Positions 833 to 63,590 are shown, counted from the stretch's first letter. The stretch is 64,000 nucleotides of DNA from an uncultured virus (IMG/VR IMGVR_UViG_3300020213_000033) (IMGVR_UViG_3300020213_000033), one strand, 5' to 3'. Numbers and translations: made by a program. Notes: a model not told the origin generated them from the sequence alone.

Positions 833-860
833 CAGAGCAGCGCGCAGAGGACGAGCAGGA

Positions 861-7474: not shown

Positions 7475-7476
7475 CG

Positions 7477-7698
7477 TCAGGTCCTCTTCGCTCTGAGCGG
7501 ATCGCGATCGGGTGCCAGGTCGTTGATGCGCTTGGTCTGCAAGTCGAGGATACGCTCGTAGAGCGCCGTCTGGGCGGCGAGCGCCTCCACGTGGTCCGTG
7601 CGCCACATCCAGAGCCGGAAGTAGCTCGCGACGAGCACCGCCCCGAGGGGTCCATACTTGAGCGATTCGGCGATCCATCCTGCAACTCCTTCTTCCAT
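7477..7698 (-). CDS. Small single-TM protein (holin-like)
   Basis: YGPLGAVLVASYFRLWMW followed by helical segment. Confidence 0.6.
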   Translation of the reverse strand: MEEGVAGWIAESLKYGPLGAVLVASYFRLWMWRTDHVEALAAQTALYERILDLQTKRINDLAPDRDPLRAKRT

Positions 7699-7710
7699 GT
7701 GGGGGTCCTA

Positions 7711-14900: not shown

Positions 14901-17900
14901 CTTGGCGAACTCGTCTTTGATGGCCTGCTGTTTCTCCCGCGCGGCCACGGTGCGTTCCTGGTTGACCGACGATTTCCCTTCGCCGTCCTTCTGGTAGATG
15001 GTCGGCAGCTTGAGATTCATGGCCTCTTCGATCAGCGTGTGGCCGAGGATCTCCGGGGTGCCCCACCTGGTTTCATTGGCGGCGGTGTTCTTGGTGCCCT
15101 TGGCGTAGGTCGGGTCGACTTTCCACGCCGCCAGCGGGGCGGCATAGGTGATGCGGAAGCCGTCTCTACGGACTTCGAGGAGTTCTGTCACGAACTGGCT
15201 GTAGACCTCGGGGGGAACCCAGGCCGACCCGAGCCGCACGTCGATGTCCACCGGCGCGAGGTCCGTCGGCTGCACCGCGGTGAGCGCGCTGACGTTCGCC
15301 TGGAACTTCTTGGGGTCGATCTTTGCCGCGGCCTCGGCCTCGGCCAACTTCTGCCGCACGGGGCCAGACAGGTAGTCGTCGGCCGTCAGCCACACGCCGC
15401 CAGGCGTCTGGTAGATGATCCCCGCCAGCGCATCCGCAACCGTGTCTTCTGACTGACTGGTCAACCGCGCCATCAACGACAGGTCGACGCGCCCGGTGTT
15501 GTTCAGCGAGACAAGGAGGGCCTCCTTTGGCGACTCGGCCGACGTGACGTCCTTCCGGGGCGACAGCGTGCGCCTGGTAAAGATAGCGGCCTTGGTCGGC
15601 GGCTTCCCCTGGCCGTGGGTCTTCTCGAGGGACATCAGCAGCGGAAGATCCGGGTCTTCGTCGAACGCCTCTTCATTGGCACGGTCGTTCAGGTGCCCGA
15701 ACTTCTTGACGAAGGCGTCGTAGACCGTGTTCAGCGTCTTCTGCGCGGCAACGATCGCGCTGTCGGTGGCCTCGGGCGAGAGCATGGCGCGCATGGTGGA
15801 CCTCGCCGCCCCGCGCACGCCCATCATGCCGACGATCCGCGCCTTGGTGGCGTCGGGGAGGTCGTCTACCGACTCCATCTCGTCGCCACGCTTCACCCAC
15901 AGCCGGCCATCCTGCTGGACGAAGGCATTTTGCTTGACGAACTCCGGGGCCGGCACCGACTCGCGGCGGGCGTCTTCAGTGGCGGCCTTGGTCGGCGTTT
16001 CGTCGTAGGTGATGGCGTTGGCTGGCAATCGGTTCAGCGCCGCGCGGAGATCGGCCTCGAAGTCGCCCCCCTCGTGCTTCACGTTGTAGCCGCCGCCGCG
16101 CCACATCTTGGCGTCGGCGGTGTGGAGGCCCACGACCATCCTGGGGTGCGCCACGTAGTACTCGTTGATCTTGATCGGTTGGCCGCTGTTGGGGTCTTCG
16201 ACGCCGCTCTCGGCCAACCGTGTGAATGCTTCCCCCTTCGCAGGAAGGTCCGCGGTGCGCCGACGCAGGAAGAGGATGTCAGTGACGACTTCCGTGCCCG
16301 CGTTCGCCTTGAACGCGGAGTCTGGGAGTCGCACCGCGCCGATCAGGTCCGCGTGCGTGGCGAGATAGTCGCGGACAGTCGCATGTTCGGCCGTGTTGCC
16401 GTCCATCGTGTAGCGCGACGTGATGAACGCCACGAGCCCGCCAGGGCGCGTCTTGTCGAGCGCCTTGGCGAAGAAGTAGTTGTGAATGGACGACCTGAGC
16501 GCCTTGGGCCTGCCGCGGAACGCCGAGTCATGGACGGCATAGTCCCCGAACGGCACATTGCTGATGATGAGGTCGAAAAAGCCGTCCGGGAGCCGGGCGG
16601 ACTCGAATCCGCGCGCCTGCACGTCCGTCTCGGGGTACAACACCTTGGCGATGCGGGCGGTGATGGTGTCGAGCTCCACACCGCCGCGCAGCGTGGACGC
16701 GCGCAGCGCATCCGGCATCGCCCCGTAGAAGTTGCCGACGCCCATCGACGGCTCGAGCACGCGGCCACTGGTGATGCCGAGCCGTTCCACGGCGGCCCAC
16801 ATAGCGCGCACGACCGGGACCGACGTGTAGTGCGCGTTCGGCGTGGACGCGCGAGCGGCGCCGTATTCCTCGTCGGCGCCGTATTCCTCGTCGGTCAGCG
16901 CCTCTTGGAGCGCCGTGTACGTCTTGGTGCCGTAGTGGAACGCCTCATTGAGCCCGCCCCAGCCGACGTACTGGGCGAGGATCGTCTGTTCGTCTGGCGT
17001 GGCGTCGCGGCGCTCGGCCTCGATCTGCTTCAGTAGCGCGATTGCCGCCAGGTTATTGCGGATCTTGACCGAGGGCGTGCCGGCGCCGACCGCTTCGTCG
17101 TCGGCTATTCGGTAGTCGGTTCCAGCGGTCCCTCGTACGGCGTCAGATCCTCGGGGTCGGCCGGCGTCATCGTGTACGCCGCCAATTCCCTCGCCTGATC
17201 CGGGCTCATCCCCGCTTGTAGTGCGTCCACGCGGATCTGGCGGGCCATCTCCTTGGCCTGCGGGCTCATCGGCGGCGGCGGCGGTATCTTCGCGGGCTGC
17301 GTCATTGGGTGCCTCTCCCTGAGTCTGCGCCTGCGGGCCGAGATCCGCAAGGGTGGGCTCGGCCACGCCGTGGACCATCCCCCAGGCCATCGTGAACGCC
17401 CGGCGAGCCTGCGCCGCAAGCGCGCCGAGATCCTCCTGGAAGTTCTCCCAGCCTTCTTGTGCGTCGATGATCCCGGCCTTGGTGTAGGCGCGCACGAGCT
17501 TGACCGTCTGCACCAAGAGCACGTCAGAGGGGACCGGCAGGCCGCTGCTCAGCGTCGAGCCCGACTTGCGAAGCTCGGCCTTGATGCCGGCGACGGCGGA
17601 GTCAATCTCGCCCTGCACCGCGGCGCGGCGCGCGGCGCGCGCGGCGGCCTTGGCGTCGACGGCCGGCGCGGCGGCGGCGGCGTCTGGCGCCCTGGCGGGC
17701 GTGATCTGCGGCGTGACCGGCTTCTTCTCCGCGAGCGCGGCCTTGCTGGCGGCCTGCGACTCGGCGCGGCTCGTGGCGATGCGCTGCTGCGCGCCGGCTT
17801 CCTCGGCGAGGTCGGCGCGCGTGTCGACCACGGACGGATGCACCTTCAGCAGCGTCCAGTCGGTCGCCCGGCTCGAGGACCGTGGCGTCGGTCCAGTTCT

Positions 17901-20900
17901 GGATGTCCCGCCGCGCGTCGGCGCCAGCGCCACCGCTTCGGTCTGCCGCACGCCGTTCTCGACGTACGAGCGCACGCCGCGCTCATCCTCGTAGATGGTC
18001 TGCCCAACCGCGTTGGTGCCGATTGCGTCCCAGGCCGTGGGGGGCTTTCCCGTCTTGCTCGGCGTCTTCGCGGCCTCCCTCGGCTGCTCCGGCACGAGTT
18101 TGCCGTCGCGCCATGCGGGTTCGACCTGCGCGGCGCCGAGTTTGACCTGCCGGCCCCCGCCGTTGTCGGGCTCGAACACCAAGACGCGCGTGAAGCTCCC
18201 GCTGTCCACGCGCAGGACGACGCCTGCACCGATGGCGCCGGCCCTGGCGCGCACCGCGCCGAGTTCCTCAACAGCGTTCGCCCACCAGTCCATTTCGGCG
18301 CCGGGCGACATCTTCGCCGCATGGCCCCACGTCGTGGCGGGACCGCCGACCGCGACCGTGGTCGTCTCGTCAGATCCGAACAGCGGTTTGATGATCAGCT
18401 CGACCGGCGCGTCCTGTGACGACACGGGACGCTCGGCGGGCGCGGGCGGCGCGGCCGGCGCGGGCGTGACGTTCAGTGCGCGTTCAGCCCGCGCCCGTCG
18501 GTCCTTCGCCTTGGAATACCAGGTCTTGGAGGGGCCGAACCATCGGAACCCCTCCCGTTTGAGCGCCGCCCGCACCGTCTCGTCCGGCTTGCCGTCGAAC
18601 TTGAGTTCTATCGACGCGCGTTCCGTGTTGTCCCGGATCTGAACCTCAGTCCCGCGGGCAATCGCAAACGGCGCCCAGACGCCAGGGGCCGTGGTGGCGT
18701 CCGTGGGCGCGACGTCAGGCGCGGCTGGGGCCGCGTCTCCGTCGAAGCTGATGTCGCCCTTGCCGGGGTCGACGCTGTCGTTGGCGAAGCCTGCATCCGG
18801 GTCCGCCTCGGGCCGCTGGCGATTCTTCCACCACGCGGTCGCGGGAGTGACGCCGAGCGCCGTGAGCGACGGCGTGGGCTTGGTCACGCCCTTGATCTGG
18901 ACCGTTCTGATGAACTCGAGAATGTCGTCGGTCGTCTCGATCTGATTGAAGCGGCCATCGCCGCGCAACTGGTCGAGCATGTCGTCGAGCGCGAGGCCAC
19001 GCTTCGGGTCGATCGAGAGCACGCCCCTGACGCCGCCGACCGCCCCGAACGCCTGCCCCTGACGGAGCCGGAACAGCTCCTCGACCTGTCCGCCCTGCTT
19101 CTCGTGGAGGCCGCCCAGGGCCGCGATTTCCTTGAGCAGCACCAGCGGGCCGGCGTCGGCGGCATCCTTCGCCTCGTCCCAGGCTCGCGTTTCGCGGAAG
19201 TCGTACTCGTCCCGCAGGTCCGTCTCGTCGACGTCCGGGTCCACGGCGCGTGCCGACGCAAGCACCTCCGCCCATTGCGTCTCGGCGGGGTCAGCCTTGG
19301 GCTCGCGCGTCTTCCGCGGCGGGCCCCCTTTGGTAGGCTTCGCGACCGGCGCCTCGGCCTCCGCTTCCCGCGTCAACCGGGCGCGAATCTCGGCCGCCAT
19401 TTCCTCGTCAGTCATCTCCGCGGCGGGCTTGGGGTCCGGCACTGGCGCAGGGGTGCTCTCGGCCAGCGCCGGCTCGAACGGCTTGAGGGACATCGCGTCT
19501 ACCCAGGTCGATGCTCCTGATGTTCTCGTCGGGGACGCAAACTGCAGCTTCGCCTTACCATCAGCGATCTGTGCCACCGTCGCCGCGCCGTGGCGCGTCG
19601 TGACCCGTGTGCCGACCTTGACCTTCAGCGCGGGCGTCTCCGCTTGGTTCGGTGTCGCTGACGCGGCGGCATCGCGCGCCACGGTGATCCGCTTGATGCG
19701 CTGTCGGATCTCTTTCAGGGTCGCAGTCGACGCCCCTGACCGCATTGCGTCCTGTTCTTCTTGGAGCACCGCCAACAGGTCGGTGGTCGTCTCCGAGGGG
19801 GCCTTGGACGTAGTGGCCGCGGTCGGAACCGCATCCACCCGCCCCTCGACAAGCTCCTGGTTGACGGACCAGCGACGACCGTCGAGCGTGACCTGAAGAC
19901 CGGAGAAGGGATCGGCCGCGGCCCGAGCCACGGTGACGATACGGCCATCCACGAGCTTGAGGGTGTCGCCCGCCTTCCAGTCCTCCCAGCGTGTGTCGTC
20001 CTCGTAGGACTGGCGCGGGATGGGCTCCTGCGCCTCTATCTCTTGGCCTCGCGCGTCGATGCCGAGGTCAGGACGTTCCCGGTCCAGGACTTCAGGACGT
20101 GTGCCCGCGACACGTTGGCGGTCTTCCGGCGCGGCGTCGAGCACTTCCGGAGTCGTCGCCTCTCTCGGCGGGGCCTCCGCTCGCGTGGCCGTCCGCATCG
20201 ACGCCACATCCGCCTGCCGCGCAGGGTTCTCCATGAACTCCGTGCCAAGCGCCACGAGCCCTTCTGGGCTCATCGGGTCAGCGATGGCTGGGGCGACAAG
20301 GCCGCGGGGCTGTTGACGCCGCTCCACGGCAGGCGTGCCCGTCCGGAGCGCCTCCTGCACCTCGGGCAGCGTCATCGCCGCCACGCGTTCAGGCGCATAG
20401 CCGAGCGCCGTCAACTGCTGCGTCTGTTCGGCGCTCACCCCTGGCGGCAGCGGCCCGAGGGCGTCGCGCATCGTCGCGGGCGGTGCCTCTGCGGCTGGCG
20501 CCGGCTGCGTGAGCGTGTAGGTGCCCGCCTGCGCCGTCGGAGTGACAAGCCCTTCGCGCTCGAGCTGGTCGATCGCGGCGCCTGCCTCACGCGGGCGCAT
20601 GGCCGTGGCGCTGCTCACATCGTTGATGCTGATCGTGGTGCGGCCGGGCTCGGCCATCAGCCGGCGCACGTTGCGCGTCTCTAGGTCGGTCGGCACGTAC
20701 GCGGGCGGCGCTCCGCGTGGAGCCACCGGCGGCACGTCGACGGGAGCGGGTGACGGGCCGGCCGGCGGCGCCTCTGATGCGAGGTCGGCCAGGGGCGGCG
20801 CTGGCGGGGCGCCGGCGGCCGTGCGAGGACGGCGGATGTTCGCGCCGCCGCCCATCACAGCACCGGAAAACAGGCCGAGCACGGCGGACTCGTCCACGCC

Positions 20901-22382
20901 TTCAAGGATCGGTCGGTCCTGAGCGACGTTCGCCAAGAGCTGTTCGGAGATCGACTGCGGCAGCTCTTCGAGGACACCTTCCTGCACCATGCCGAGCGCC
21001 ACACGCGTAGCCAGCCCACGAGCGGCGACAGGACTGGCCGCACCAGCGGCGATCATGGTGTCGATGTCGGCGATACCGAGCGACTGCGCGATGCGATTGC
21101 CGAGCAGGCCGAATGTGGTCGTCGCCGCGCCTGTCGCGACGGCGAGGGCGGACTGCTTCACCGTGAGACGGCCATCCTCGGAACCTTCCCTGGTGTGTGA
21201 AGCCGCGCTCCCGGCAGAGGCGATGCCCTCCCCGAGCGCGCCACGTACACCGGCACTCGCGTACGGAATAGCGCGACCGATAGCCCCCCCTGCCAGCATC
21301 ATGGGCGCCGACTCGACAACCGTGTTTGCGACCACGCCGGGGTTCGAGAGTGCGGCCACGGCGGTAGCGAGCACACCATCAGCCGCCTGCACGGCCGCGC
21401 TGCCCTCGCGCTGCTTCTTGGAATACCAGGACGAGAGGATCTTCGTGGCCTCGGCGGGGCGGAAGCCGATCGTCTCTTCGAGGAACTGACCCACACGACC
21501 GCCGGTCGCGATGTCCGCCAATCCCACCGGCACATTCACAGCGCCGATGGCACCCTTCACCGCGCTGATGACTGGGTCAACGCCAAGGCGACGCGGCAAG
21601 GACATGCCGAAGTCCGCCAACGTCCCCAGGGCGCCACGGGGCTCTGGGGCGCGGCTGATGCCCGTCGCCTGGCCCATGATGTCGCCCATCGACTTGGCGG
21701 CGCTCGGCTCCTGGGTCGCGTCGAGACGGGCCGCCGCGTCCGGTTCCCAGCCCAGGCGCACGAGATCGTCTCGAGACGCGCGGGGCGTGCCAGGCACGCG
21801 CGCGCCGGTGCGGGTATTGAAGCCGCCCACGACCTCGTTGGGGTGTCCGGGCTTCTTGAACGCCGATGGCCAGTGGCCGTCCGGCCCTGGCTCGGCGCCG
21901 GCCGCGAAGGCGGCGCGGTAGTCGTAGGACTGCTCGGGGGCGTCGGGGTTGGGGTCGAGGCCGAGCGTCTTGGCGCGCTGGCCGTACCACGCCTGGAACG
22001 TCGGCTCGTCTACACCAGCAGCAGGTAGAGCGCGGCGAGGATCGTCGGCACGAGTCGGCCCGGAAGGCAGCGCGGCATCTAGCGAGAGTGTATCAGTGTC
22101 CTCTTCGATGGTGAGCCCCATCGATCGAGCCACATCGAACGGGTCGGGGTCTGGCGTGTCCTCTTCGATGGTGAGTCCCATCGTCCTGGCCACATCAAAC
22201 GGGTCCACACGCGGCGTCCGCGCCGCAGGCCGCGGCGTCGGCGGGCGCATCTCAGCCGTGCCAGCCAGGATCGACTGGCGTTGCCAGTCCTGGTCGTGCG
22301 TCTCAAGCGTCGGCGTGTCGTCTTCGACGGCGAGTCCCATCGATCGAGCCACGTCGAACGGGTCAAGTGGGCGGGTCGGCAT
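8928..22382 (-). CDS. Giant DarB-like polyvalent protein (N6-adenine MTase + SNF2-like helicase + HExxH zincin + LPD38-like C-terminus), probably injected
   Basis: [11 protein letters not shown] and ISNVPFG (MTase); [33 protein letters not shown] (helicase); AHEIGH (~11970); last gene of ejection module. Confidence 0.9.
17105..17305 (-). CDS. Candidate nested 66-aa gene in +1 frame inside giant protein
   Basis: GGGAGAGG 6 nt before ATG 17305; [44 protein letters not shown]. Confidence 0.45.
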
Positions 22383-31128: not shown

Positions 31129-32385
31129 CTAGCTCTGGATCCGCACGGCGAGTTCGGGGCGCACTGCGGCCCAGCCGTACAGGATGTCGAGACGCGCCGG
31201 GGACTGGTCGGTCATGACGTCGTACGCCTTGATGAAGCGGACGCTCATGGCGATGGCCGCGTTGCTGATGCGCTTGCTCACCCACACCCCCTGCGGCAGG
31301 GGGAGGTCCGCCATCACGCACGTGAAGGCGTTCGGGTCATACACCAGGCCGGTGCGCGTGACCTTGTTCGCGTGCGTCGAGGCGTGGCCGAAGATCGTGA
31401 TGATCGCGTTGTCCGCCGGGCGACCCGTGGCGGTCGAGTAGGCGTTGCTCGCGCCATAGACCAGCGGGGGCGAGAACGGGATCGTCGCGTTGCCGCTGCC
31501 GTCGGAGAAGACGTCGGCGCTCACCACGTAGTCCTTGAGCCGCCCGGTGGACTGGTACGACATCGGGTTGATGTCGAAGACGCCGTCGAACTGGATGACG
31601 TCGCCTTCGTTCAGGCGCTTGGCCGCGGCGGCGGTCCAGCCGTCCGTGACGAGCGACGTCACGCCGGAGGCGGCGCCGGCCGCGCCCGCCGCCACGTTGA
31701 CCAAGGGGGTCCCGCCGAGTGGGCCGACCACGTGCGTCGGCGCGTTCTCGTCGATGTACCACTCCTTGATGCCCAGCACTTCGCCGGCAATCTTGCCGGT
31801 GCGGTACTGCTTGGAGATCACGGCGCCGGGATTGAACAACGCCAGATTGGCGTTCGCCAGCGACGCGTGCATCTGCGCGGTGAGAATCGCCACGAGACGG
31901 CCGGTCGGGACCGAGCCTTCCGTGAGCTTCACGGTCGCATCGAGGTAGGACGCGTTGGTCGTGGGGACCACGGCAGGCGTGCCCACCGTGCGGAACACGC
32001 GCTTGTACATCCGCTGCAGCCCGTCGAGGTCCATCTGATTGCCGAGTGCTTCCACGGCCGGGTCGATGTAGCGTTCGGTGTAGTTGTCCACTTCCATCCG
32101 GAGGCTGGCCGAGCTGAACTCGATGCCGACGTTCGCCTGATCGGTGAGGGTGATCGGGACCACTTCTTCGTTGGCGCTGACGGGGTTGAGCGCCTGGCCT
32201 TTGTTGACCATGTAACGCTGCGGCAGACGCGCGTTCACGGTATAGCCCACCTTGGCGCCGGAGATCGTGTACTGGCTGTCGTAGCCCCGCGTCACGTTGG
32301 CGGCAAAGCGGAGCGTGTTGGTGAGACGCTGCGTGACTTTCTTGATGACCCAGGACGGCGTCACCAGGCTGTTCGATACGGACAT
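31129..32385 (-). CDS. Major capsid protein, P22 coat family
   Basis: KVGYTVNARLPQRY; ERYIDPAVEALGNQMD; RLDILYGWAAVRPELAVRI. Confidence 0.95.
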   Translation of the reverse strand: MSVSNSLVTPSWVIKKVTQRLTNTLRFAANVTRGYDSQYTISGAKVGYTVNARLPQRYMVNKGQALNPVSANEEVVPITLTDQANVGIEFSSASLRMEVDNYTERYIDPAVEALGNQMDLDGLQRMYKRVFRTVGTPAVVPTTNASYLDATVKLTEGSVPTGRLVAILTAQMHASLANANLALFNPGAVISKQYRTGKIAGEVLGIKEWYIDENAPTHVVGPLGGTPLVNVAAGAAGAASGVTSLVTDGWTAAAAKRLNEGDVIQFDGVFDINPMSYQSTGRLKDYVVSADVFSDGSGNATIPFSPPLVYGASNAYSTATGRPADNAIITIFGHASTHANKVTRTGLVYDPNAFTCVMADLPLPQGVWVSKRISNAAIAMSVRFIKAYDVMTDQSPARLDILYGWAAVRPELAVRIQS

Positions 32386-32455: not shown

Positions 32456-33709
32456 CTAGCGACGGCCGTGATCGGCGTCCCGCTTGTTCTCGCGGGACAT
32501 CCACGACTCGAAGGATTCGCCTTCGTCGTCCTCGTCGTCCACTACTGACGCCTTGCTGCTCGCGCCCACCGGCCGGATGGGGGTTGCAGCGCGTGAGACA
32601 GTCGTACCGGAACGCCGCGAGCCGGAGGCACGGGGTTCGGGCGAGGACGAGGACGAGAGGCGCGCATCTAGCGCGGCGATCCGCCTTCCGGCAGACGCCG
32701 AATCGAGCGACCGAATCTGTTCAAACGTCTCGCTGCTTTCCGCGAGATGCAACAGCACGGCCGTAGGATCGTCCGACTCCATGATGGCGTCGAACATCAC
32801 CGTCGAGAAGTCCAGCGATTGCAGGATCGCCGCGGATTCGACGTTCTTGCCGAGCGCGTAGAGCAGATCGGCGCCCTTGGGATGCATCCGCACCACGTCG
32901 CGCATGAACGGTGTCTGTTCAACCCCCGCGGCGCGCAAGTCCGCCATGGCGGTGGCGAAGTCGGGGGTGCTGGCCTTGACTGCATCGACGCGGGCCTGCA
33001 GGCCGGCGTTGATGGTGGCTTCGGCTGCGCGCGCCTCGATGCTCTCGACGCGGGCGACCGCCTCCGCCTGCACGCGCGCGAGTTCGGCGGCGAAGTGGCC
33101 TTTCACCACGCCTTCCGAGGCGGCCGCGCGCGCGTCGCGGTAGGCCTCGAGATCGTCATTGAAGACGTCCCAGTCCTTGCCCGCGTCGTCGTATTCCTTC
33201 CAGACGGGCTTCTTCGGGAGCGTGGCCGGCGCGGCGGCGGCGGCGTCTGGCGCCACGGGGGTGTCGCGCGGGAAGCCGGGGCGGGCCTGCTCGCGGGAGG
33301 CGGCCAATTGGGCGCGGATGTCCGCGAGTTCCTTGGCGGCGGCATCGCGCTCGCGGATGGTGTCGTGCTTCTCGCGCGTCCTGGTGGCGATCTCCTTTTG
33401 GAGTTCGGCCACACGCCCCTCGACCGTGCGCTTCGGCTTGCTGACGGCCTCGGTGGCCTTCTCGGCCTTCTCGGCCTTCGCGCTGCCGGCGCCGGTGGAC
33501 TCGACCGATCCGTCCGCGTGCTCGATGCGCTCGCCGGGGGGCGTCTCGTCGCCTGGCGCCACGTCGGCCGGCGTGTCGTGACTCAGGGTGTGGCGGAGTT
33601 CCTCGGCCGTTTCCCGGATCTGCCCGCCATCGGTGATGACGAAGTCGTCATCGGAGACCACCGTGGGGGCTGCGGCGAAGTCGTCAATCGGGGTGGGGGT
33701 GTCGGCCAT
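32456..33709 (-). CDS. Scaffolding protein
   Basis: Acidic, coiled-coil, GADLLYALGKN; between portal and coat. Confidence 0.8.
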   Translation of the reverse strand: MADTPTPIDDFAAAPTVVSDDDFVITDGGQIRETAEELRHTLSHDTPADVAPGDETPPGERIEHADGSVESTGAGSAKAEKAEKATEAVSKPKRTVEGRVAELQKEIATRTREKHDTIRERDAAAKELADIRAQLAASREQARPGFPRDTPVAPDAAAAAPATLPKKPVWKEYDDAGKDWDVFNDDLEAYRDARAAASEGVVKGHFAAELARVQAEAVARVESIEARAAEATINAGLQARVDAVKASTPDFATAMADLRAAGVEQTPFMRDVVRMHPKGADLLYALGKNVESAAILQSLDFSTVMFDAIMESDDPTAVLLHLAESSETFEQIRSLDSASAGRRIAALDARLSSSSSPEPRASGSRRSGTTVSRAATPIRPVGASSKASVVDDEDDEGESFESWMSRENKRDADHGRR

Positions 33710-33727
33710 AGTCCCTGCTCGGCTCAT

Positions 33728-33758
33728 ACTCTACACGTCAAACGGTTGGCGCTGTCAA
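33728..33758 (-). promoter_or_regulatory. Candidate sigma70 promoter for scaffold/coat
   Basis: TTGACA-19nt-TAGAGT (long spacer). Confidence 0.35.
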
Positions 33759-36523
33759 CTTTTTGCCGCTTTCGGCTTCGTCGCGCGCGCCTCCCGGCCA
33801 GTGGCCGCCTCGGCGATCTGGGCCTGTCGGCGGTCGGTGGCTGCCGCGAGGGCGCCTTTCCGCGCGTCGGCGCGCTCGGCCTGCACGTCCTGTCGCACGC
33901 CGTCGCGGCTCGCGCGCTGCTCGTCGCCCTCGCGCTGCTCGCGGGCAAGGGCGCGCTGCCGACTCGCCGCGCTGCCGGCCATCAATTCCTTTCGCACGTC
34001 GCCGCGCACCGCGCGCGTCTCGTCGCGGTCGCCGGCACGGGCGGCACGCTGGTCCTGGTCCTCGGAGAGCTGCGCTTCGAGGGACGCCTCGAGCCGGGCC
34101 ATGAGGACGTCGTGCGCCTGCTGCGACTCGCCCATCGCGGCGTCGATCTCGCCCTGCAGCGTGGCGACGTCCACCTTGCCGCCGCCGTTCATCTGCGCGA
34201 TGGCCAGTTGCGTGCGCGTCGTGGCGAGCACGGTGCGCTCGCGGGAGGCGTTGGATTCCTGCGCGATCATCAGTTGCGTCTGGTACTGGCTGCGCCGGGT
34301 CTGAATCTCGGTCGTGGCCTCCTGCAGTTGCTGCTGCATCTGCTGCAGCTGCATGGTGAGACCCTGGATCTTCGCCATCGCCTCCGGCGACATGTCCGAG
34401 TCGTCGTCCTCGTCGCCCGGCAGGTTGGCGATTGCGGGCTGCACCGCCTTGATGCGGGCCGACAGTTGCTCCGCGATGTCGCCTTCCATCTGCGAGGCGA
34501 GCAGGTCGGCCATGAGCGGCGCGAGGGCGGGGGCGGCTTCCATGATGGCGCGGATCGATTCGCTGTTCTGGTCCTTCGCGCTCTGCGTGCTTGGCCCGAC
34601 GCCCACGGCGATGGTGTAATCGGCGTCGGCGTCGAAGGTGTAGAGTTTCGTGCGCTGCGGCTTCGCCATCCCCGGCATCTGCACCGACTGGCCGACCATG
34701 CCCTCCGGCGGCATGCCTGGGGGGACCGGCACGGCTTGCGGCCCGTCCGGGGTCTGCACGAAGGGGGCGCCGACGATCGCGTACTCCTCCTGGTCGCGCT
34801 CACCGAGCAAGCGCATGACGCGGCCGGGGCGGTCGTAGATGTGGGGCAGGAGGTCCACGATGATGCGCGCTTCGTAGGCCATCGAGATTTCGGCCAGGTT
34901 CGTGAGGAAATGCGAGCTGCCGACCTGGGCCTGCTGCTGGAGCGACTGCACCGCCTTGCCGCTGCGCTCGCTCGAGTATTGGCCGAGGGACGCTTCGTGC
35001 CGGCCGGTGATGTCCTTGATGTCCTGGTCGGCGGCTTGCGCGGCGATCGTGATCGCCTGGATCGCCGGCTCAGACGTGTTGCGCTGCGGCGGGGGCATGA
35101 GATGGCCGTCGTGGCTCGTCGGCTTGTAGACCAGGACCGAGTGATTCTCGGAGTTCGCCGTGTCCCACTCCGGATAGAGCTCGGTCTGGCCCTCGGCGGC
35201 GATGTAGGGCGCGCGGGGGGCGAGCGCCACGGCTTCGACCTGGGCCGAGCGGTGATACTCGTAGGACCGATTCGCGTCCTTGCCCACGGTGTAGATGCCT
35301 TTGAAGGTCCGCTCGCCGTTGACGTTGTGCTCCTCGCCGACGACTTCCACGATCGGGATGAAGCGGCCGGGCCACTGCTCCTCGTCGAGGATTTCTTCGC
35401 CGTTAAGGACTTCCCATCGCACCACCGGCGTGACGATCTCGCGCTTCAACACGTCCGGCGGTAACTGCACGGTCGGCGGGATCTCGTCGGCCCACATCTC
35501 CTGATGGCCCTGCCCGGTCGGCACCCACAGCTTGGTGCGGCGCTCGTACTCGACGTAGAAGTGCTCGGCGACGCGGATCGTGGCCTCGGTAATCCAGCCG
35601 GGCGGCGTGTCGCCGGTCCCTGTAAGCGCGCCGCCCTCGTGCTGCGCGTCGGTCCCGTCTTCCACTACCGACCCGGCCAGAATCTCGCCGTAGGTCTGCT
35701 CCTCGAGCGCCTTGCGGATCTTCTTGGCCAGCTTGCTGTCCGGGTAGCGGTCTGGATAGTCCCGCGTCGGGATGTCCTCGGTGATGAGGCAGAATTTCAT
35801 GTCCGAGCCGTCCGGCTCCTTGCGCCAGGGGTCCGGGTAGACCGCGAATTGGTTCAGGATGCGACTGACGACGATGTCGAGGTCGCGATCCTTGTCGTTG
35901 GCGTACTTCGTTTCGATGCGGTAGTAGCCGCGGCCACAGGTGATCACGCGGTCGAGGGCCCAGTTGCGCGCGATGTGCGCGCGGCTGTCGACTTCAATGG
36001 CCCGCACCGCGTCCTGCACCAGTTGGGCGTTCTTCTTCGTCGCCCGGCCCGCCTTCGCCTTGATGCGGATACTGAGGCGCGCGTTGCGGGCCTCGTTCAT
36101 CGTCTGCCGCTTCGGTACGGCCAGCTTGTCGAGCACCAGCATGGGGCGCCCGTACCCCGGCTTGCCGGACTCGCCATTCGTCTCGCCGCTGCGCCGCGTG
36201 ATGTCGCCAGCCGTCCAGTGGTCCTCGAGGCGGGCGCGCGCGTACTTCAGGTCGTCGAGTTCGGCGCGGCGTTGGTCTTCGTCGGCGCTGCTCGAGGTCT
36301 TGAAGTTGCGGATAGCGCGGGCGTGCCGCTTGCGGAGGGCGTCGGCGCGGGCGATCTCGTCGGGCGTGACGGGGGTCGCGTCTGGGTCGCCGCCGGCTTC
36401 CACGATCGCGTCGTAGTCGCCTCTGCCGCGGCTGACCATGTCCACGCCGTAGGCGTTGTTGGTGCCCTCAACCGGATCGATGCGGGGGAGCGACGGGGGC
36501 CGGCGCCCTGGAGTGGTGGCCAT
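33755..36523 (-). CDS. Portal protein, P22-like
   Basis: CGRGYYRI; VYPDPWRKEPDGSDMKFCLI; WPGRFIPIVEVVG; long helical C-terminal barrel. Confidence 0.93.
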   Translation of the reverse strand: MATTPGRRPPSLPRIDPVEGTNNAYGVDMVSRGRGDYDAIVEAGGDPDATPVTPDEIARADALRKRHARAIRNFKTSSSADEDQRRAELDDLKYARARLEDHWTAGDITRRSGETNGESGKPGYGRPMLVLDKLAVPKRQTMNEARNARLSIRIKAKAGRATKKNAQLVQDAVRAIEVDSRAHIARNWALDRVITCGRGYYRIETKYANDKDRDLDIVVSRILNQFAVYPDPWRKEPDGSDMKFCLITEDIPTRDYPDRYPDSKLAKKIRKALEEQTYGEILAGSVVEDGTDAQHEGGALTGTGDTPPGWITEATIRVAEHFYVEYERRTKLWVPTGQGHQEMWADEIPPTVQLPPDVLKREIVTPVVRWEVLNGEEILDEEQWPGRFIPIVEVVGEEHNVNGERTFKGIYTVGKDANRSYEYHRSAQVEAVALAPRAPYIAAEGQTELYPEWDTANSENHSVLVYKPTSHDGHLMPPPQRNTSEPAIQAITIAAQAADQDIKDITGRHEASLGQYSSERSGKAVQSLQQQAQVGSSHFLTNLAEISMAYEARIIVDLLPHIYDRPGRVMRLLGERDQEEYAIVGAPFVQTPDGPQAVPVPPGMPPEGMVGQSVQMPGMAKPQRTKLYTFDADADYTIAVGVGPSTQSAKDQNSESIRAIMEAAPALAPLMADLLASQMEGDIAEQLSARIKAVQPAIANLPGDEDDDSDMSPEAMAKIQGLTMQLQQMQQQLQEATTEIQTRRSQYQTQLMIAQESNASRERTVLATTRTQLAIAQMNGGGKVDVATLQGEIDAAMGESQQAHDVLMARLEASLEAQLSEDQDQRAARAGDRDETRAVRGDVRKELMAGSAASRQRALAREQREGDEQRASRDGVRQDVQAERADARKGALAAATDRRQAQIAEAATGREARATKPKAAKS

Positions 36524-36984
36524 CAGTCGATCCCCTTGTCGTGGCCGTCAGCGATGGCCTCGTCCAGCCACTGCTGCGGGGACTTGTCGCCGTACTGCTG
36601 GCGGATCGCGTCCGGGTGGCTCGCCTCTTCGATGACCCACGACTTGTCGATCTCGGCCTGCGTGGGCGGGGTCACGGGCTCCACCTGGTCGAGGAACGCG
36701 CCAGCCAGGTGCATGGCCTCCGCGTGATCCTGGTCGAGCGTGAACCGCGCCTGCACCGCGCCGCAGAAAAACAGATAGGCCCTGTCGCAGATTTCGTCCG
36801 GCAGGTCCATGACTGGTGCGAACGCTTCCCGCATCGTTGCCCGCCACACCTTCTCACCCTGGGCGACGACTTCGCAGAGGATCAGGTCGTCGGCGCAGAT
36901 ACCCTCGATGACTCGCCGGATCTGCAGCTTCGCGATCTGCTGCGGCGAATACTCGCTCTCGATGCGCTTGAAGGGGCGGCTCAT
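36523..36984 (-). CDS. Hypothetical protein
   Basis: TGATG overlaps at both ends. Confidence 0.7.
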   Translation of the reverse strand: MSRPFKRIESEYSPQQIAKLQIRRVIEGICADDLILCEVVAQGEKVWRATMREAFAPVMDLPDEICDRAYLFFCGAVQARFTLDQDHAEAMHLAGAFLDQVEPVTPPTQAEIDKSWVIEEASHPDAIRQQYGDKSPQQWLDEAIADGHDKGID

Positions 36985-37229
36985 CAGTCGCGTAGCCGCA
37001 CCGCGAACTCGGGCTGCATCTTGGCCCAGCCGTACAGGACGTCGACACGCGCGGCGTGCCGGTCGGTCACGACGTCATACGCCTTGAGGAACCGCACGGA
37101 AAAGGCGAGCGGCTCGAAGACGAGCGGCGGCGGGGCGACGGGGATCTGGACGGTGGCCACGCCGAGGACGGCCAGTCCGAGTGCCGCGATGAAGTGCCGC
37201 CGCTTGATGCCGTTCTCGAGTGGGGCCAT
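36984..37229 (-). CDS. 81-aa twin-arginine-leader protein fused to a copy of the capsid C-terminus
   Basis: KRRHFIAALGLAVLGVA; SVRFLKAYDVVTDRHAARVDVLYGWAKMQPEFAVRL matches coat C-terminus; GAGG RBS. Confidence 0.75.
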   Translation of the reverse strand: MAPLENGIKRRHFIAALGLAVLGVATVQIPVAPPPLVFEPLAFSVRFLKAYDVVTDRHAARVDVLYGWAKMQPEFAVRLRD

Positions 37230-37247
37230 GCTTGCCTCGGTGGACGT

Positions 37248-37322
37248 TGGTTGCAGGAGCGGGAATTGAACCCGCGGCTTCCAGGTTATGAGCCTGGCGC
37301 TCTGCCACTGAGCTACCCTGCG
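37248..37322 (-). tRNA. tRNA with CAU anticodon (Met/fMet-like), encoded CCA
   Basis: CGCAGGGTAGCTCAGTGGCAGAGCGCCAGGCT-CAT-AACCTGGAAGCCGCGGGTTCAATTCCCGCTCCTGCAACCA folds as a cloverleaf. Confidence 0.95.
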
Positions 37323-37487: not shown

Positions 37488-37727
37488 TCAGCGGCGGCTA
37501 TCGCTGGTGACGACGCTGGTGACGACGAACGTGCCTGCGTATCCGGAGAGGGTGATCACCTCCCCTGGGCGGAGACGCCGTAATCGAGGCCACTCGGCGT
37601 GCTGCGGGCGCACGATGTCGAAGTAGCTCCGCTGGCCCGGTATCCACAGGGCGCGCTCTGGGTCGAACACGGCGCCGGCGACGGCGGCGGTCGTCGCGGC
37701 AAGGAAGCGGCGGCGCGTGAGAGTCAT
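37488..37727 (-). CDS. 79-aa twin-arginine-leader protein
   Basis: [25 protein letters not shown] coupling to upstream gene. Confidence 0.7.
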   Translation of the reverse strand: MTLTRRRFLAATTAAVAGAVFDPERALWIPGQRSYFDIVRPQHAEWPRLRRLRPGEVITLSGYAGTFVVTSVVTSDSRR

Positions 37728-38308
37728 CACCAGCCCCACATCACCGGCGGCTCGAGCGTGCCGAACACGACGTGCGTGAGGCGCGCGCCATCGCCCTCCC
37801 CGTGGTTCTCCTCGAGGCTCCGCGAATGGAACAGGTCCGACTTGAACAGCACCAGCCGGTTGAACTTGGCCGAGACGCGGACCCACGGCTTCCACAGCCG
37901 GCGGTTCCGCATGCCCGTGAGATTCCAATCGCCATCGATCGCGCCAGAGTGCCGGTGGCGCCAGAACGTGGTGCCGTCGCCCGCGACGTCCACCGGGGTC
38001 ATGTAGTAGATGGCCGTCATGTCGCCCATCATCGCGTCGGAGTGGATGAAGTTCGGTTCGACTTGGCCGCGGGGGCTCTGCCTGGTGAACGAGAGCGTGG
38101 GCGTGAAGCTGGGCACCAGCGCATCGAGCGCCGCGAGGAGGTCGATGGTCGCCTGCTCCGCGATGCCGTGGAAGGTGTCGTCGCCGAACGTGACCGAACG
38201 CCGGGGCATCGCCAGCGCCGCGGCGCGTACGGCGTGCGGGTTCGGCAAGACGTCGTCGAAGATCTGGATGATCTGCATCGCGGGGGCGGTGGTTGGTGCG
38301 GCGCCCAT
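37727..38308 (-). CDS. 2OG-Fe(II) oxygenase-like protein (DUF6445-like)
   Basis: IFDDVLPNP; FIHSD (HxD); GTTFW; KFNRLVLFKSDLFHSR. Confidence 0.75.
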   Translation of the reverse strand: MGAAPTTAPAMQIIQIFDDVLPNPHAVRAAALAMPRRSVTFGDDTFHGIAEQATIDLLAALDALVPSFTPTLSFTRQSPRGQVEPNFIHSDAMMGDMTAIYYMTPVDVAGDGTTFWRHRHSGAIDGDWNLTGMRNRRLWKPWVRVSAKFNRLVLFKSDLFHSRSLEENHGEGDGARLTHVVFGTLEPPVMWGW

Positions 38309-38568
38309 CACGTCAGCCAGTTGTCGAGCGGGACGCGCTCCACCGTCGCCGCGTCGACGCGCACGGCCGCCACGCTCGCGGCCTCGGCGGTCAGGTGGGC
38401 ACTGACGAGCGTGTGCTGGTCCATCACGACCCAGATGCCGCACTCCGGGGTGAGGTCACGGCGCACTGCGCGCGAGACGATCGCCGCGATCCCGATGCGC
38501 TCGGCCGCCGCCCGCGCGACGAGCGCCGACCACAGGTCAGACGGGATGCCACGCCAGGTGAACGTCAT
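38308..38568 (-). CDS. Small protein, possible ribbon-helix-helix
   Basis: FTWRGIPSDLWSALVARAAAERIGIAAIV; coupled overlaps. Confidence 0.5.
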   Translation of the reverse strand: MTFTWRGIPSDLWSALVARAAAERIGIAAIVSRAVRRDLTPECGIWVVMDQHTLVSAHLTAEAASVAAVRVDAATVERVPLDNWLT

Positions 38569-38823: not shown

Positions 38824-39006
38824 CTACTCGTCGACGCGCGACGTCTGGGCCGTGTTCTTGAAGCTCCCGCGCTGGTCGAGCTGCTTGATGCGCGCCGAGA
38901 GCTCGTTGACCGCGGCCGGCGTGCCGGTCACGAGGCTGTCTTCGGGGACTCCGGCCCAGATCGCCTCGGCCATCGAGCGGTAGATGTCGCCGTTTCTGGT
39001 GTCCAT
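38824..39006 (-). CDS. Small hypothetical protein
   Basis: AGGAG RBS before ATG 39006. Confidence 0.6.
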   Translation of the reverse strand: MDTRNGDIYRSMAEAIWAGVPEDSLVTGTPAAVNELSARIKQLDQRGSFKNTAQTSRVDE

Positions 39007-39018
39007 GTTGTTCTGCTC

Positions 39019-40473
39019 CTAGCTGCCCATCCACGATCCGCCGCCGGCCTGGCGCCCGCGGTTGAACGCGACGCGCCGCTGCTGGGCCTTGGTCGTCACC
39101 GGCCGCGCGCGCTTGATGCCGGAGTATATCGCGTAGCGGGTGGCGTCCATGCAGTGGTCGTTCTTTTTCACGATGCGGCCCTTCGCGTCGCGCTGATACA
39201 TGCGCCACTCGTCCCACCACTCGGTGCAGCTCGCGAAGACCTTGAGGCGGCCATCCGAGAAGAGCTGCCAGACCGACGCGATGCCCGCTTCGACGCTTTT
39301 GTCGGCCAGCTCGAGGTCGAGGCCGCCACGCTGGTAGACGCGGATCAGCTGTTCGGCGTCGCCGGCCGTCACGATGAGCGCCGCCGCATCGCCAGACCCG
39401 GGGATGCCCTCGCCGCGAGCGCGGATCGCGGAGAGATGCACGGCGGGCTCGGGGCTCTCACGCTTGTAGCTGTCGGTCACGATGACGCGGCCCCCGGCGG
39501 ACGGTTCGATCGCGAGCCAGACCGCGGCTGTCGCCTTCGCGCCGCCGCCCACGTCCAGGCCGAAGCACTTGTTCCAGTGGGGCGGGATCTCGAAGTTGGG
39601 GACGCGCAGCTCTGATTCGGGGAAGGCCCACACGGCGCCGGAGCCCAGTTGGGGGATGCCCTGGCTGCGCGCGTCACGCTGGAACGGTGGCGTCGTGGCG
39701 AGGAGTTCAGCCTTTTCGGCCTCGCCGAGGTGCGGGACGTGGTCCCACCCGGCGGTGGTCAGATGGAGATACTGCGCGGCCTCGGGCGACGGCGAGACGA
39801 ACATCGAGACGACGTCCGACATGCCCTGGAGCGGCGTGAAGGTCGTGATCATCAGGCCCGACGTGGTCATGGTACGCACGACGGCCTCGGCGTAGCAGTC
39901 GAGCGGAGGTTCTTCGTCGAACCACACGATGTGCTGCTCGGTGCCCTCGAAGCTTTTACTTCCCTGCTCGTAGGACTTGAACTGGATGATGCTCGTGCCG
40001 CCGTCGTTGTGCCGCACCCACACCGTGTCGAGCGCGCCGGGGTTGTGCGGCTTGCGGGTGGCGTGAATCACCCGGTCGAGCGGGATCATCCCGCCCCCGG
40101 AGAGGGTGCCATCCTCGCCTACCGCGCCGACGAGCGCCTTCTGCAAGATGTTTTTGGTGGTTCCCGTGTCCTTGCCCGCGGCCCAGACGTCGATTCGGTG
40201 CGGGAAGACGCGGCCCGTCCACCAGTCCGGGTACTCGCCAGTGGCGTGCGCGGCAACCTCGTAGGCGCCTGAGCGGGTCTTCCCAACCCGGTTCGCGGCC
40301 ATGAACAGCCGCTGCCGGTGTTGCGCGCCCGCCTTGAAGTGGTCCATGTGCCGCGGGTACAGCTCGCGGCGGACGGGGCCCGACTCCGGGAAGTAGGTGT
40401 ACAGCTCGCAGCCCTCGAGCGCCACGAGCCGCGCGGTGGCGGCATGGAGACGCTGGACGGCTTCGATGGTCAT
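39019..40473 (-). CDS. Terminase large subunit
   Basis: AANRVGKT Walker A; VWFDEEPP; TFTPLQG; GLDVG; DHCMDATRY. Confidence 0.95.
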   Translation of the reverse strand: MTIEAVQRLHAATARLVALEGCELYTYFPESGPVRRELYPRHMDHFKAGAQHRQRLFMAANRVGKTRSGAYEVAAHATGEYPDWWTGRVFPHRIDVWAAGKDTGTTKNILQKALVGAVGEDGTLSGGGMIPLDRVIHATRKPHNPGALDTVWVRHNDGGTSIIQFKSYEQGSKSFEGTEQHIVWFDEEPPLDCYAEAVVRTMTTSGLMITTFTPLQGMSDVVSMFVSPSPEAAQYLHLTTAGWDHVPHLGEAEKAELLATTPPFQRDARSQGIPQLGSGAVWAFPESELRVPNFEIPPHWNKCFGLDVGGGAKATAAVWLAIEPSAGGRVIVTDSYKRESPEPAVHLSAIRARGEGIPGSGDAAALIVTAGDAEQLIRVYQRGGLDLELADKSVEAGIASVWQLFSDGRLKVFASCTEWWDEWRMYQRDAKGRIVKKNDHCMDATRYAIYSGIKRARPVTTKAQQRRVAFNRGRQAGGGSWMGS

Positions 40474-43263: not shown

Positions 43264-43611
43264 TCATGGCGTCGGCGTAGCCTTCGGTGTGATCGTCGGC
43301 TGTGGGAAGAGCCCACCACAGAATGGGCAGTCGATCGCGCCCCGCTCAGCGCGTAGGATCTGCGCCACGGCGTCGTCGGCACTCGTGGGTCTCCTGAGTT
43401 TCGGCCTCACGCCTTGCAGAAATGCACACGCCACAATTCCATCGGCCCAATCCTCCACATCAGGGAGGGGCTCGGCCCGCCCCGCGTCCACGTCGAGGGG
43501 CACGGCAGTGGTGAGTGCGGCGATGGCTACGGTCAGCGCCTCGCGGAGCGTCAAGTAGTACTCATCGGGCCAGTTGCCCTTGATTGCGGCGATGGCTTGC
43601 TCTGGGGTCAT
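43264..43611 (-). CDS. Hypothetical protein
   Basis: ATGA-coupled; C-terminal CPFC. Confidence 0.65.
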   Translation of the reverse strand: MTPEQAIAAIKGNWPDEYYLTLREALTVAIAALTTAVPLDVDAGRAEPLPDVEDWADGIVACAFLQGVRPKLRRPTSADDAVAQILRAERGAIDCPFCGGLFPQPTITPKATPTP

Positions 43612-43808
43612 GACGTGGCCTTTGGTGTGTAGCCCAGCCGGCAGCCGTCATCGGGAGTGACGTGCGAATCTACCGCGATGGACTGGCTATTGCGGCACAG
43701 GCCGCGAGAGGATGGCCCGAGCTTCTCGAAGTGCGCGCACGTCCCGCAGGTGCCGGCGCTCAGCGCGTCGTCGAGTGCGCGTAGGATGTCGCCTGTGATA
43801 GTCGTCAT
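43608..43808 (-). CDS. Small 4-Cys protein
   Basis: CGTCAHF...CRN...DDGC. Confidence 0.6.
   Translation of the reverse strand: MTTITGDILRALDDALSAGTCGTCAHFEKLGPSSRGLCRNSQSIAVDSHVTPDDGCRLGYTPKATS
43627..43790. repeat. 164-bp perfect direct repeat, copy 1
   Basis: Identical to 44189..44352 by base-by-base comparison. Confidence 0.97.
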
Positions 43809-44173
43809 GGCTTCTTGGTCCAGGTGAACTGCACGCCTACCTGTTGCATGCCGGCGTTGAGCGCGGCGACGCGGGCGGTGTCGTCGACGTGACCGATGTA
43901 AGGCTTGTCATTGATGCTGTAGTGGTCCAGCAGGCCACCCTTGTGGATTCCCATCACACGGCGGAGCCGGGGGGTTAACACCTGGGGGGCAAGATCCGCA
44001 AGTATATACTTCTCTTCTATGTCCGCATCCGTCAGTCCCTCCGCCCGACAGAGCAGCCCGATGCAGCACATCTTGCCTTCCGGGGTGCGGAGTTGGTAAA
44101 GATCACGCTTCCCTCGATGCCAGACGTCATCGGGGAGATCTACCACGAGGGGGGCGAGAGGGGGGTTGGTCAT
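43805..44173 (-). CDS. Hypothetical protein between direct repeats
   Basis: GKMCCIGLLC...IND motif; ATGA overlaps. Confidence 0.7.
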   Translation of the reverse strand: MTNPPLAPLVVDLPDDVWHRGKRDLYQLRTPEGKMCCIGLLCRAEGLTDADIEEKYILADLAPQVLTPRLRRVMGIHKGGLLDHYSINDKPYIGHVDDTARVAALNAGMQQVGVQFTWTKKP

Positions 44174-44460
44174 GGTGTCTCCTTCGCCGTGTAGCCCAGC
44201 CGGCAGCCGTCATCGGGAGTGACGTGCGAATCTACCGCGATGGACTGGCTATTGCGGCACAGGCCGCGAGAGGATGGCCCGAGCTTCTCGAAGTGCGCGC
44301 ACGTCCCGCAGGTGCCGGCGCTCAGCGCGTCGTCGAGTGCGCGTAGGATGTCACTCGCGCGAGCGTTCGCTAACAGTCTCGCATTGGGCTCCCATTTCGC
44401 CACGCTGTCGCGTAGGTAGCGCAGCACCACGTGTGGAGAGGCGTCATCGGGGGTCGTCAT
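44170..44460 (-). CDS. 4-Cys protein sharing its C-terminal half with 43608..43808
   Basis: GAGGAG RBS; identical 54-codon segment. Confidence 0.65.
   Translation of the reverse strand: MTTPDDASPHVVLRYLRDSVAKWEPNARLLANARASDILRALDDALSAGTCGTCAHFEKLGPSSRGLCRNSQSIAVDSHVTPDDGCRLGYTAKETP
44189..44352. repeat. 164-bp perfect direct repeat, copy 2
   Basis: Identical to 43627..43790. Confidence 0.97.
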
Positions 44461-63143: not shown

Positions 63144-63590
63144 TCAGGGGCGTCGGAGCCGGAGGTTGCTCGGCGCAGGACGCACCGCCCCCGGACGCAC
63201 AAAAGGGTGACTGCGCGCACTCTCTGGAGAGACGCCAGCGCTACTGATGGCCGCGAGTGTCGAATCGTAGGTCAGCGTCAACGAGAAGGGAAGGGCGAAG
63301 AGGGGGCCACCGGCCGTCTCGTCCCGCACGCAATCGGTCGTGTCCCCAGCGTCTCGGAGGAATCGGATCTGCGTCGGGTTAGCCTGAGTGCCGCTGACCG
63401 CCAACACCGCCTGACCACAGAGCGCCTGCGCGGCAGGGAACGTGAACGTCGTGATCGGAGAGGCAGCGCCGAGGTTGTAGATCGACAGCCGGTAGTCCGT
63501 GACCGCCTGCGCCTCAGCCTGAGACGACGCCAGCAGCGACAGCGAGAGCAAGAGCGCGACGAGCAGCGATCGTGAGAGCCTTAACATCAT
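63144..63590 (-). CDS. Signal-peptide protein, paralog of 241..684
   Basis: Near-identical leader, diverged mature part. Confidence 0.75.
   Translation of the reverse strand: MMLRLSRSLLVALLLSLSLLASSQAEAQAVTDYRLSIYNLGAASPITTFTFPAAQALCGQAVLAVSGTQANPTQIRFLRDAGDTTDCVRDETAGGPLFALPFSLTLTYDSTLAAISSAGVSPESARSHPFVRPGAVRPAPSNLRLRRP

Follow-up and report, generated by a model that had tools for sequence, protein, structure and literature searches.

Why would a phage carry a gene of 81 codons that joins a twin-arginine-type leader to a copy of the end of its own coat protein? The gene in question, ORF81, lies in a 64,000-nucleotide stretch from an uncultured virus (IMG/VR IMGVR_UViG_3300020213_000033), referred to here at its full length as the window. 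This is a 64-kb phage genome with a G+C content of 67.7% and nearly all genes on the minus strand. At slightly better than even confidence, we read ORF81 as a genuine, dispensable accessory gene that encodes a Tat-targeted mimic of the last P-domain strands of the coat, with a role in conflict likelier than one in the assembly of the phage's own heads.

ORF81 appears gene-like and lies among the head genes

ORF81 occupies 36984..37229 on the minus strand, starts with ATG and was identified by ORF calling as an 81-residue mini-protein composed of a leader, a linker and a coat-tail copy. Inspection of the sequence reveals a Shine-Dalgarno-like GAGG (37235..37238, minus strand) 5 bases 5' of the ATG, which the allele of a closely related locus, L002, retains as GAGGG. 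G+C by codon position is 0.74/0.43/0.90 for ORF81 versus 0.59/0.47/0.92 for the coat gene, with third-position values of 0.93 (leader half) and 0.90 (tail half), and the remaining five frames across the region show atypical composition or stops. The Shine-Dalgarno-like element and the coding-type base composition suggest that ORF81 is a gene-like reading frame.

A phage tRNA-Met (CAT; 37248..37322, minus strand; ARAGORN) lies 18 bases upstream of ORF81, in a position that is conserved in relatives. On the downstream side, the ORF81 stop TGA overlaps the ATG of ORF153 (36523..36984, minus strand; no assigned function) as ATGA. ORF153 lacks a Shine-Dalgarno element of its own as read from the sequence and is conserved directly upstream of the portal gene (33755..36523; PF16510, E 1.4e-111). 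The scaffold gene (32456..33727) and the major coat protein gene follow, the latter encoding a P22-type protein of 418 aa (31129..32385, minus strand; PF11651 P22_CoatProtein, E 3.9e-26; PHROG 283, E 1.2e-57). A promoter/terminator scan found no promoter-like sites and three terminator-like sites versus 1.8 expected.

Across the tRNA from ORF81 is ORF79 (37488..37727, minus strand), a second twin-arginine-leader gene (T-RRR-F-L) in which a DPERALW-PG motif follows the leader. The same motif follows the leader in the homologues P0021, P0050 and P0056 and in the leader genes of three other coat loci (L018, L045 and L049), and comparison of the C-terminal half of ORF79 with the window proteins returned no recognisable fragment (best E 0.96). 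Three small or accessory genes lie between ORF79 and the large terminase gene (39019..40473; Terminase_6N/6C). A 2OG-Fe(II) oxygenase-like gene (37727..38443, minus strand; DUF6445, E 7.6e-8) sits between the terminase and the tRNA, and its stop overlaps the ORF79 start.

The C-terminal half of ORF81 copies the end of the coat protein

Residues 41-81 of ORF81 (36987..37109, minus strand) correspond to the final coat segment, residues 378-418 (31132..31254, minus strand). Between ORF81 41-80 and coat 378-417 the BLASTP alignment is gapless, with 25/40 identical residues and 35/40 positives (E 4e-17). At the DNA level, identity is 80% over 103 bases by blastn and 74% (89/120) across the last 40 codons. 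Similarity ends at the stop codon, and both C-termini coincide. A sequence-only reading of the window had described the frame as ending in a copy of the coat C-terminus, with DNA similarity to the coat 3' end, and both observations are borne out by these alignments. The tail keeps the coat residues R, D, L-Y-G-W and P-E..A-V-R, with its conserved Gly 14 residues before the C-terminal end. Searched alone, ORF81 matches the far end of PHROG 283 'major head protein' (positions 345-381 of the 385 in the profile; E 7e-4) and gives no match to PF11651 at E<=0.01. Self-comparison of 87 window ORFs indicates that ORF81 is the sole fragment-sized copy of a virion gene in the window. A template/variable pair of a diversity-generating retroelement was considered and rejected: such a pair would show differences confined to the adenines of one copy, and of the 31 differences 11 fall at adenines of the coat gene and 7 at those of ORF81.

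To place the copied segment within the coat fold, we used an AlphaFold model of the coat built from a 60-sequence alignment (pLDDT 82, pTM 0.79), in which residues 379-418 form three strands (380-386, 394-407 and 413-417). The closest solved relatives are Sf6 gp5 (5L35, 7SP4; E 1.5e-25) and the coat entry 8SKG. For P22, the gp5 domain map in PMC9965877 counts residues 358-416 as P-domain sheet and residues 417-430 as A-domain, and P-domain residues I366 and W410 are reported to form a pocket for W61 in the E-loop of the neighbouring subunit (bioRxiv 10.1101/626804). By position, then, the ORF81 tail would correspond to the last P-domain strands and the final A-domain strand. The ORF81 model itself contains the leader helix (residues 10-26), with the remainder predicted as an unstructured chain (pLDDT 49-69). 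A complex prediction with coat and ORF81 residues 34-81 scored 0.01, which weighs neither for nor against binding. ORF81 thus shares the C-terminal strands and the C-terminal end of P22-type coats (PF11651, HK97 fold) but holds only about one tenth of the fold, without the N-arm, E-loop, spine helix, A-domain or I-domain, and therefore cannot serve as a shell subunit.

The leader resembles a twin-arginine signal

The leader spans residues 1-27 (37149..37229, minus strand). Its motif K-R-R-H-F-I-A occupies residues 9-15, after MAPLENGI, with the arginine pair encoded at 37197..37202, and residues 10-26 form a hydrophobic helix with the properties of a Tat h-region (pLDDT 77-88 in the AlphaFold model). 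It is like a Tat signal peptide in having RR-x-F-[LI] a few residues into the chain and then a Gly/Ala-rich helix of mild hydrophobicity. The RRxF motif and hydrophobic stretch noted in the sequence-only reading are accordingly both present, as KRRHF from residue 9 and the helix at 10-26. A proline-rich linker follows (residues 28-40; 37110..37148, minus strand), in which P34 is nearly invariant across the family.

Profile searches grade this likeness. ORF81 scores 14.1 bits (E 0.045) against TIGR01409 TAT_signal_seq, below the cut-off of 16.7, and has no match to PF10518 at E<=0.01. Among 35 family members, 30 match TIGR01409 at E<=1 (best 3e-6) and 11 match PF10518 TAT_signal at E<=0.01. Because its own score is below the TIGR01409 cut-off, we call ORF81 itself 'Tat-like' and take the term 'Tat signal' from the family only. 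The Tat pathway is known for folded cargo, whereas the ORF81 passenger is a 40-residue fragment predicted not to fold alone. In many relatives a Pro directly follows the end of the Ala-rich helix; Pro at that position would block signal peptidase I.

ORF81 appears to belong to a large virus-borne family

A phmmer search of ORF81 against 1.84 billion cluster representatives returned 66 matches at E<=1e-3, self included. Small proteins of <=150 aa make up 47 of the 65 non-self matches, and they align end to end with ORF81 (query 1-79). By simple patterns, 41 of these 47 carry RR-x-[FL]-[LIFMV] near the start, 44 carry the tail motif and 38 carry both, where each of the 38 represents a separate 50%-identity cluster. 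Five other matches are full-length coats (401-432 aa) aligned solely to ORF81 36-80, and the remaining 13 are proteins of 167-334 aa with mainly tail similarity, four of which also have the leader. In a 35-member alignment R10, R11, F13, G67 and P73 are invariant, all of them present in ORF81, and P34, R46, D63 and Y66 are nearly invariant. PF11651 matches 12 of the 35 members at E<=0.01, and most small members have a conserved Gly 14-15 residues from the C-terminus, as in full coats. The nearest neighbours in the ESM Atlas are small viral clusters of 72-84 aa with 50-96 members each, and 24 of the 30 nearest clusters have a share of PF11651.

The architecture of the family comprises a leader, a Pro-rich linker, an R-x-D-[VIL]-[LIM]-Y-G ... 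P-E tail and the native coat C-terminus within ~65-125 aa, and ORF81 contains all of these elements in one ORF. Some relatives have other coat pieces after the leader, for example an F-H-x-D-A-F strand, and in the subfamily that shares the ORF81 N-terminus (MAP..G-KRRHF) a stretch resembling the long helix of the coat (R-Y-I-x-P-A-V..L....D) was recognised by eye only. Taken together, these similarities suggest that ORF81 belongs to a large family of virus-borne mini-proteins, each roughly 70-100 aa long.

All ten homologues that were looked up are metagenome singletons, and one NCBI MAG record carries the name 'twin-arginine translocation signal domain-containing protein'. Among 50,697 records of cultured phages, the tblastn matches of ORF81, P0009 and P0050 (9, 9 and 5 records) were confined to annotated coat genes, at their 3' ends, and blastn with the ORF81 region found tRNA-Met genes only. 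A profile of the leader subfamily recovered only L002 from viral contigs (1 of 15 stretches), L002 and two short leader-only matches from metagenomes (3 of 122) and two ordinary bacterial leaders from genomes (2 of 97). A search with P0003 gave a single locus, which matched its coat-tail half (1 of 331).

Other coat loci carry the mini-gene, some with a phage-borne TatA

We scanned 81 loci with P22-type coats, 80 from IMG/VR and the window. Tat-plus-coat-fragment genes in other P22-like phages, which the sequence-only reading had put forward as a check, were found: a family profile detects full-length small members in 5 of the 81 loci (the window, L002, L018, L045 and L049), and all five members lie upstream of the coat gene and share its strand. 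A strict leader pattern finds leader ORFs in those five loci and in the doubtful L051. Genomic context was read for the five loci, which represent four lineages.

Inspection of related phage loci reveals phage-borne TatA genes. In L018, a TatA_B_E gene (1273..1455; PF02416, 57 bits, cut-off 21) lies directly after a leader gene. In the record of L045 (G002, L100), a TatA gene (4385..4597, minus strand; 56 bits) lies upstream of five consecutive leader genes. A third TatA is found in L024 (1042..1233, minus strand; PF02416, 64 bits), so that TatA is directly beside leader genes in two of the three TatA loci (L018 and G002). A PF02416 search found no TatA in the window. It is mainly because phage-borne TatA adjoins leader genes that we take the Tat reading literally, although as a sign of TatABC-dependent export these genes are circumstantial.

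In G002, TatA and the block of five leader genes split the large terminase gene, leaving its parts (L100 6799..7665 and 264..1040) ~5.8 kb apart. The record of L049 (G003, L101) shows the same split with the parts ~8.3 kb apart, and its family member stops 6 bases before the C-terminal half of the terminase. In both records the break lies near residue 230 and separates an N-terminal ATPase part from a C-terminal part. The family member of L018 (8191..8481) adjoins a LAGLIDADG homing-endonuclease gene (7462..7992), which lies between portal and scaffold, immediately before the family member.

A residue core is held and other positions change fast

The tail of each mini-protein was compared with the coat encoded by the same phage, and alignment columns were classed by conservation among 60 coats. 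In window ORF81, differences affect 1/15 conserved and 14/25 variable columns (P 0.0017). The corresponding values are 3/14 and 16/25 for L049 (P 0.012), 0/9 and 9/13 for L018 (P 0.0014), and 4/13 and 14/18 for L045 (P 0.012), in a test that is partly biased because members are recognised via those very residues. Ranking the 60 coats by similarity to each tail places the cognate coat first for the window, seventh for L049, twentieth for L045 and fifty-fourth for L018, where the first rank of ORF81's own coat is narrow (25/40 versus 24/39 for the coat of L014). These ranks suggest that the tail copies are neither simply recent duplicates of the resident coat nor tightly co-evolving with it.

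Substitution rates add a second view. The ORF81 tail against the coat tail gives dN 0.294 and dS 0.392 (omega 0.67-0.75). Comparison of the window with L002 over the leader's 37 codons gives dN 0.052 and dS 0.066, in contrast to omega values of 0.11-0.26 for the flanking ORF153, portal, scaffold and coat genes. Plain dN/dS thus detects no purifying selection on ORF81 in either comparison, and the high leader ratio relative to the flanking genes makes the recent evolution of ORF81 look relaxed or diversifying. The sequence-only reading had argued from synonymous and conservative differences that ORF81 is under selection. That argument is weak given a dN/dS of 0.67-0.75 and given that most changes between the window and L002 alleles are non-synonymous substitutions or frame-preserving indels. 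ORF81 does keep the coat-conserved columns (P 0.0017). The evidence for selection comes from where the differences fall and from the depth of the family. A core of residues appears to be held, with other ORF81 positions changing fast.

ORF81 is an optional cassette in the phage population

Three IMG/VR records, G001 and two more, lack ORF81 and match the window to either side of it at 98-99% identity. The presence/absence cassette comprises the Shine-Dalgarno element and ORF81 (256 bases, 36985..37240), in place of which the sister genomes have one base, and no microhomology was seen at the cassette junctions. In the deletion form, 10 bases separate the tRNA from the ORF153 start, with no upstream ORF and no Shine-Dalgarno element. 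Contigs from three microbial-mat runs join 36984 to 37241 at depths of 18.5 (X2), 24.6 (X3) and 6.9 (X7), and run X1, which may be the source of the window, contains the ORF81 form at a depth of 47. In two sister samples the main contig has the deletion form. The mat samples may come from one campaign and from the sources of the IMG/VR records, and so are not independent.

A third allele is found in L002, which is 96.5% identical to the window overall and is matched by one X7 contig. This allele encodes 84 aa, keeps the leader and shows no differences in the last 22 codons. Its first copied strand differs by five non-synonymous changes and by two indels, a deletion of 15 bases and an insertion of 24, none of which breaks the frame, and has lost conserved residues. 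The replaced segment within ORF81 spans 37055..37113, with 59 bases in the window versus 68 in the L002-type allele, and the frame is kept. In the outgroup L014 (coat 76% identical), the order of tRNA-Met, slot, ORF153 homologue and portal is preserved, and the slot is filled by an unrelated 46-aa ORF. ORF81 is therefore a dispensable, optional gene in the phage population, and the intact, altered and absent natural alleles within one microbial-mat phage population provide a ready-made comparison.

The slot across the tRNA is also variable, with ORF79 in the window and a 192-aa leader protein in L002 (558..1136, plus strand). The last 23 residues of the latter show a weak resemblance to coat 380-402 (E 0.007, or 2.6e-4 with the family profile), and the protein terminates just past D-V-L-G. 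A 221-aa leader protein in L045 (161..826) has a similar end just past D-V-L-C-G. A second indel relative to G001 lies at 38827..39011 in the window, where a 60-aa ORF (38824..39006) is missing from the 99%-identical G001.

A possible conflict function and its alternatives

Full-text searches of the published literature found no Tat leader fused to a virion fragment and no phage TatA used in this way. In the parts of a 2026 Tat review that were consulted (PMC13673990), phage appear only through PhiX174 E/SlyD, T4 RI and PspA.

Several known systems share single aspects of the design. P4 Sid and the SaPI proteins CpmB and Ccm are small satellite proteins that exploit capsid interfaces in the cytoplasm, on assembling heads. 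The likeness to ORF81 would be that of small mobile-element proteins using capsid protein interfaces; in contrast, the satellite proteins have no export leader, and ORF81 has one and is encoded by the phage itself. In T4, Gol, a short internal stretch of the major capsid protein, is recognised by the defence protease Lit, and such use of a short capsid stretch as a host-defence ligand supplies the logic of a decoy reading. Gol, however, belongs to the complete capsid protein and switches defence on, whereas ORF81 is a separate, leader-tagged gene. The microProteins of plants and animals are truncated paralogues that titrate their parent proteins, and ORF81 is likewise short and copies a single motif of a multi-domain protein that self-associates. 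They belong to another kingdom and have no export leader.

In the reading that we prefer, the leader would bring ORF81 to the host Tat translocon, with the product either exported or anchored in the inner membrane. Since the tail is predicted to be unable to fold alone, it would act by presenting a face to a partner, here the conserved face of the coat P-domain sheet. Such a partner might be a general recogniser of P22-type coats, that is, a host defence or quality-control factor or the coat of a rival phage, and ORF81 would then be a conflict gene acting as decoy, sink or exclusion factor. The sequence-only reading had proposed a membrane-tethered or exported capsid mimic serving as a decoy, an assembly modulator or an exclusion factor, and all of these roles stay conjectural. 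A general partner is likelier than own assembly because the gene is optional, its non-key positions change fast and in three of the four lineages the tail fails to track the cognate coat. A recurrent conflict function is further suggested by the size of the family and its restriction to viruses, the gain and loss between near-identical genomes and the TatA genes of some relatives. A periplasmic location of the tail fits poorly with a target in the cytoplasm, be it the coat or an immune sensor.

One alternative, which we consider unlikely though not far-fetched, is a decaying scar of illegitimate recombination in which the coat 3' end was copied behind a leader-like start and, being functionless, is now being lost. 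Absence from 98-99% identical genomes, a dN/dS near 0.7, a tail predicted not to fold alone and a place in a variable slot beside a tRNA are all consistent with decay, as is the L002 allele with its degenerate first-strand residues and indels. Those same indels both preserve the frame, however, and the wider family is difficult to reconcile with a scar: 38 small cluster representatives keep leader and tail in a single open frame, RR and F are invariant in 35/35 members, differences avoid the coat-conserved columns in 4/4 lineages, and the ESM Atlas clusters are large and viral. The third-position G+C of 0.93 in the leader half also speaks against a scar. A function in head assembly, in which the tail would pair with the phage's own coat, for instance by presenting the P-domain pocket for a neighbouring E-loop, and time, nucleate or limit procapsid assembly at the membrane, draws on the location of ORF81 inside the head-gene operon, on its own coat being the best match among 60, and on the copied strands themselves, which comprise the last P-domain and final A-domain strands and in P22 form the pocket for the neighbour's E-loop W61. 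We judge it clearly improbable, given that sister genomes with the same coat dispense with the gene and that in the other lineages the cognate coats reach only ranks 7, 20 and 54 among 60. Anchoring by an N-terminal RR leader would moreover leave the tail on the far side of the membrane from the cytoplasm in which heads are assembled.

A role in cis is more improbable still. ORF81 might deliver ribosomes to ORF153 through the ATGA coupling, or its 103-base homology patch might serve recombination with the coat gene. ORF153 begins within the ORF81 stop without a Shine-Dalgarno element of its own, and both L002 indels keep the frame up to that stop, as coupling would predict. Yet the abundant deletion form has ORF153 10 bases after the tRNA with neither upstream ORF nor Shine-Dalgarno element, and coupling requires neither an invariant RR leader nor coat residues throughout the family. 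Recombination between the direct repeats, for its part, would be expected to delete the portal, scaffold and coat genes. A last proposal, which might be termed 'hitchhiker expulsion', is a long shot. Here the mini-protein would bind, in the cytoplasm, a host factor that senses the conserved P-domain strands of P22-type coats, such as an immune sensor, protease or chaperone, and remove it by pulling it to the Tat translocon or through it, so that binding precedes export and the location problem is avoided. The leader would always be of Tat type because Tat alone among export routes carries folded proteins together with bound partners. Phages with several such genes would bring their own TatA for capacity, and sister families derived from portal, terminase and tail pieces would act on other sensors.

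Should the preferred reading of ORF81 as a functional, Tat-targeted coat mimic hold, phages would as a routine direct short copies of the virion parts that are most conserved to the Tat machinery, which none of the phage strategies described so far would predict. Identifying the partner might uncover a novel class of host sensors for capsid proteins; equally, the outcome might be a novel means of disarming or exclusion, or a novel use of the Tat pathway.

Further features of the window

Beyond the head-gene region, the window contains a single 4484-aa ORF with coding-type composition (8928..22382, minus strand), presumably a giant virion or internal protein. A pair of paralogous ORFs on the minus strand lies near both ends (241..684 and 63144..63590; 73% identical over 123 aa), and two further minus-strand ORFs (43608..43808 and 44170..44460) are close tandem paralogues with 97% identity over 59 aa.
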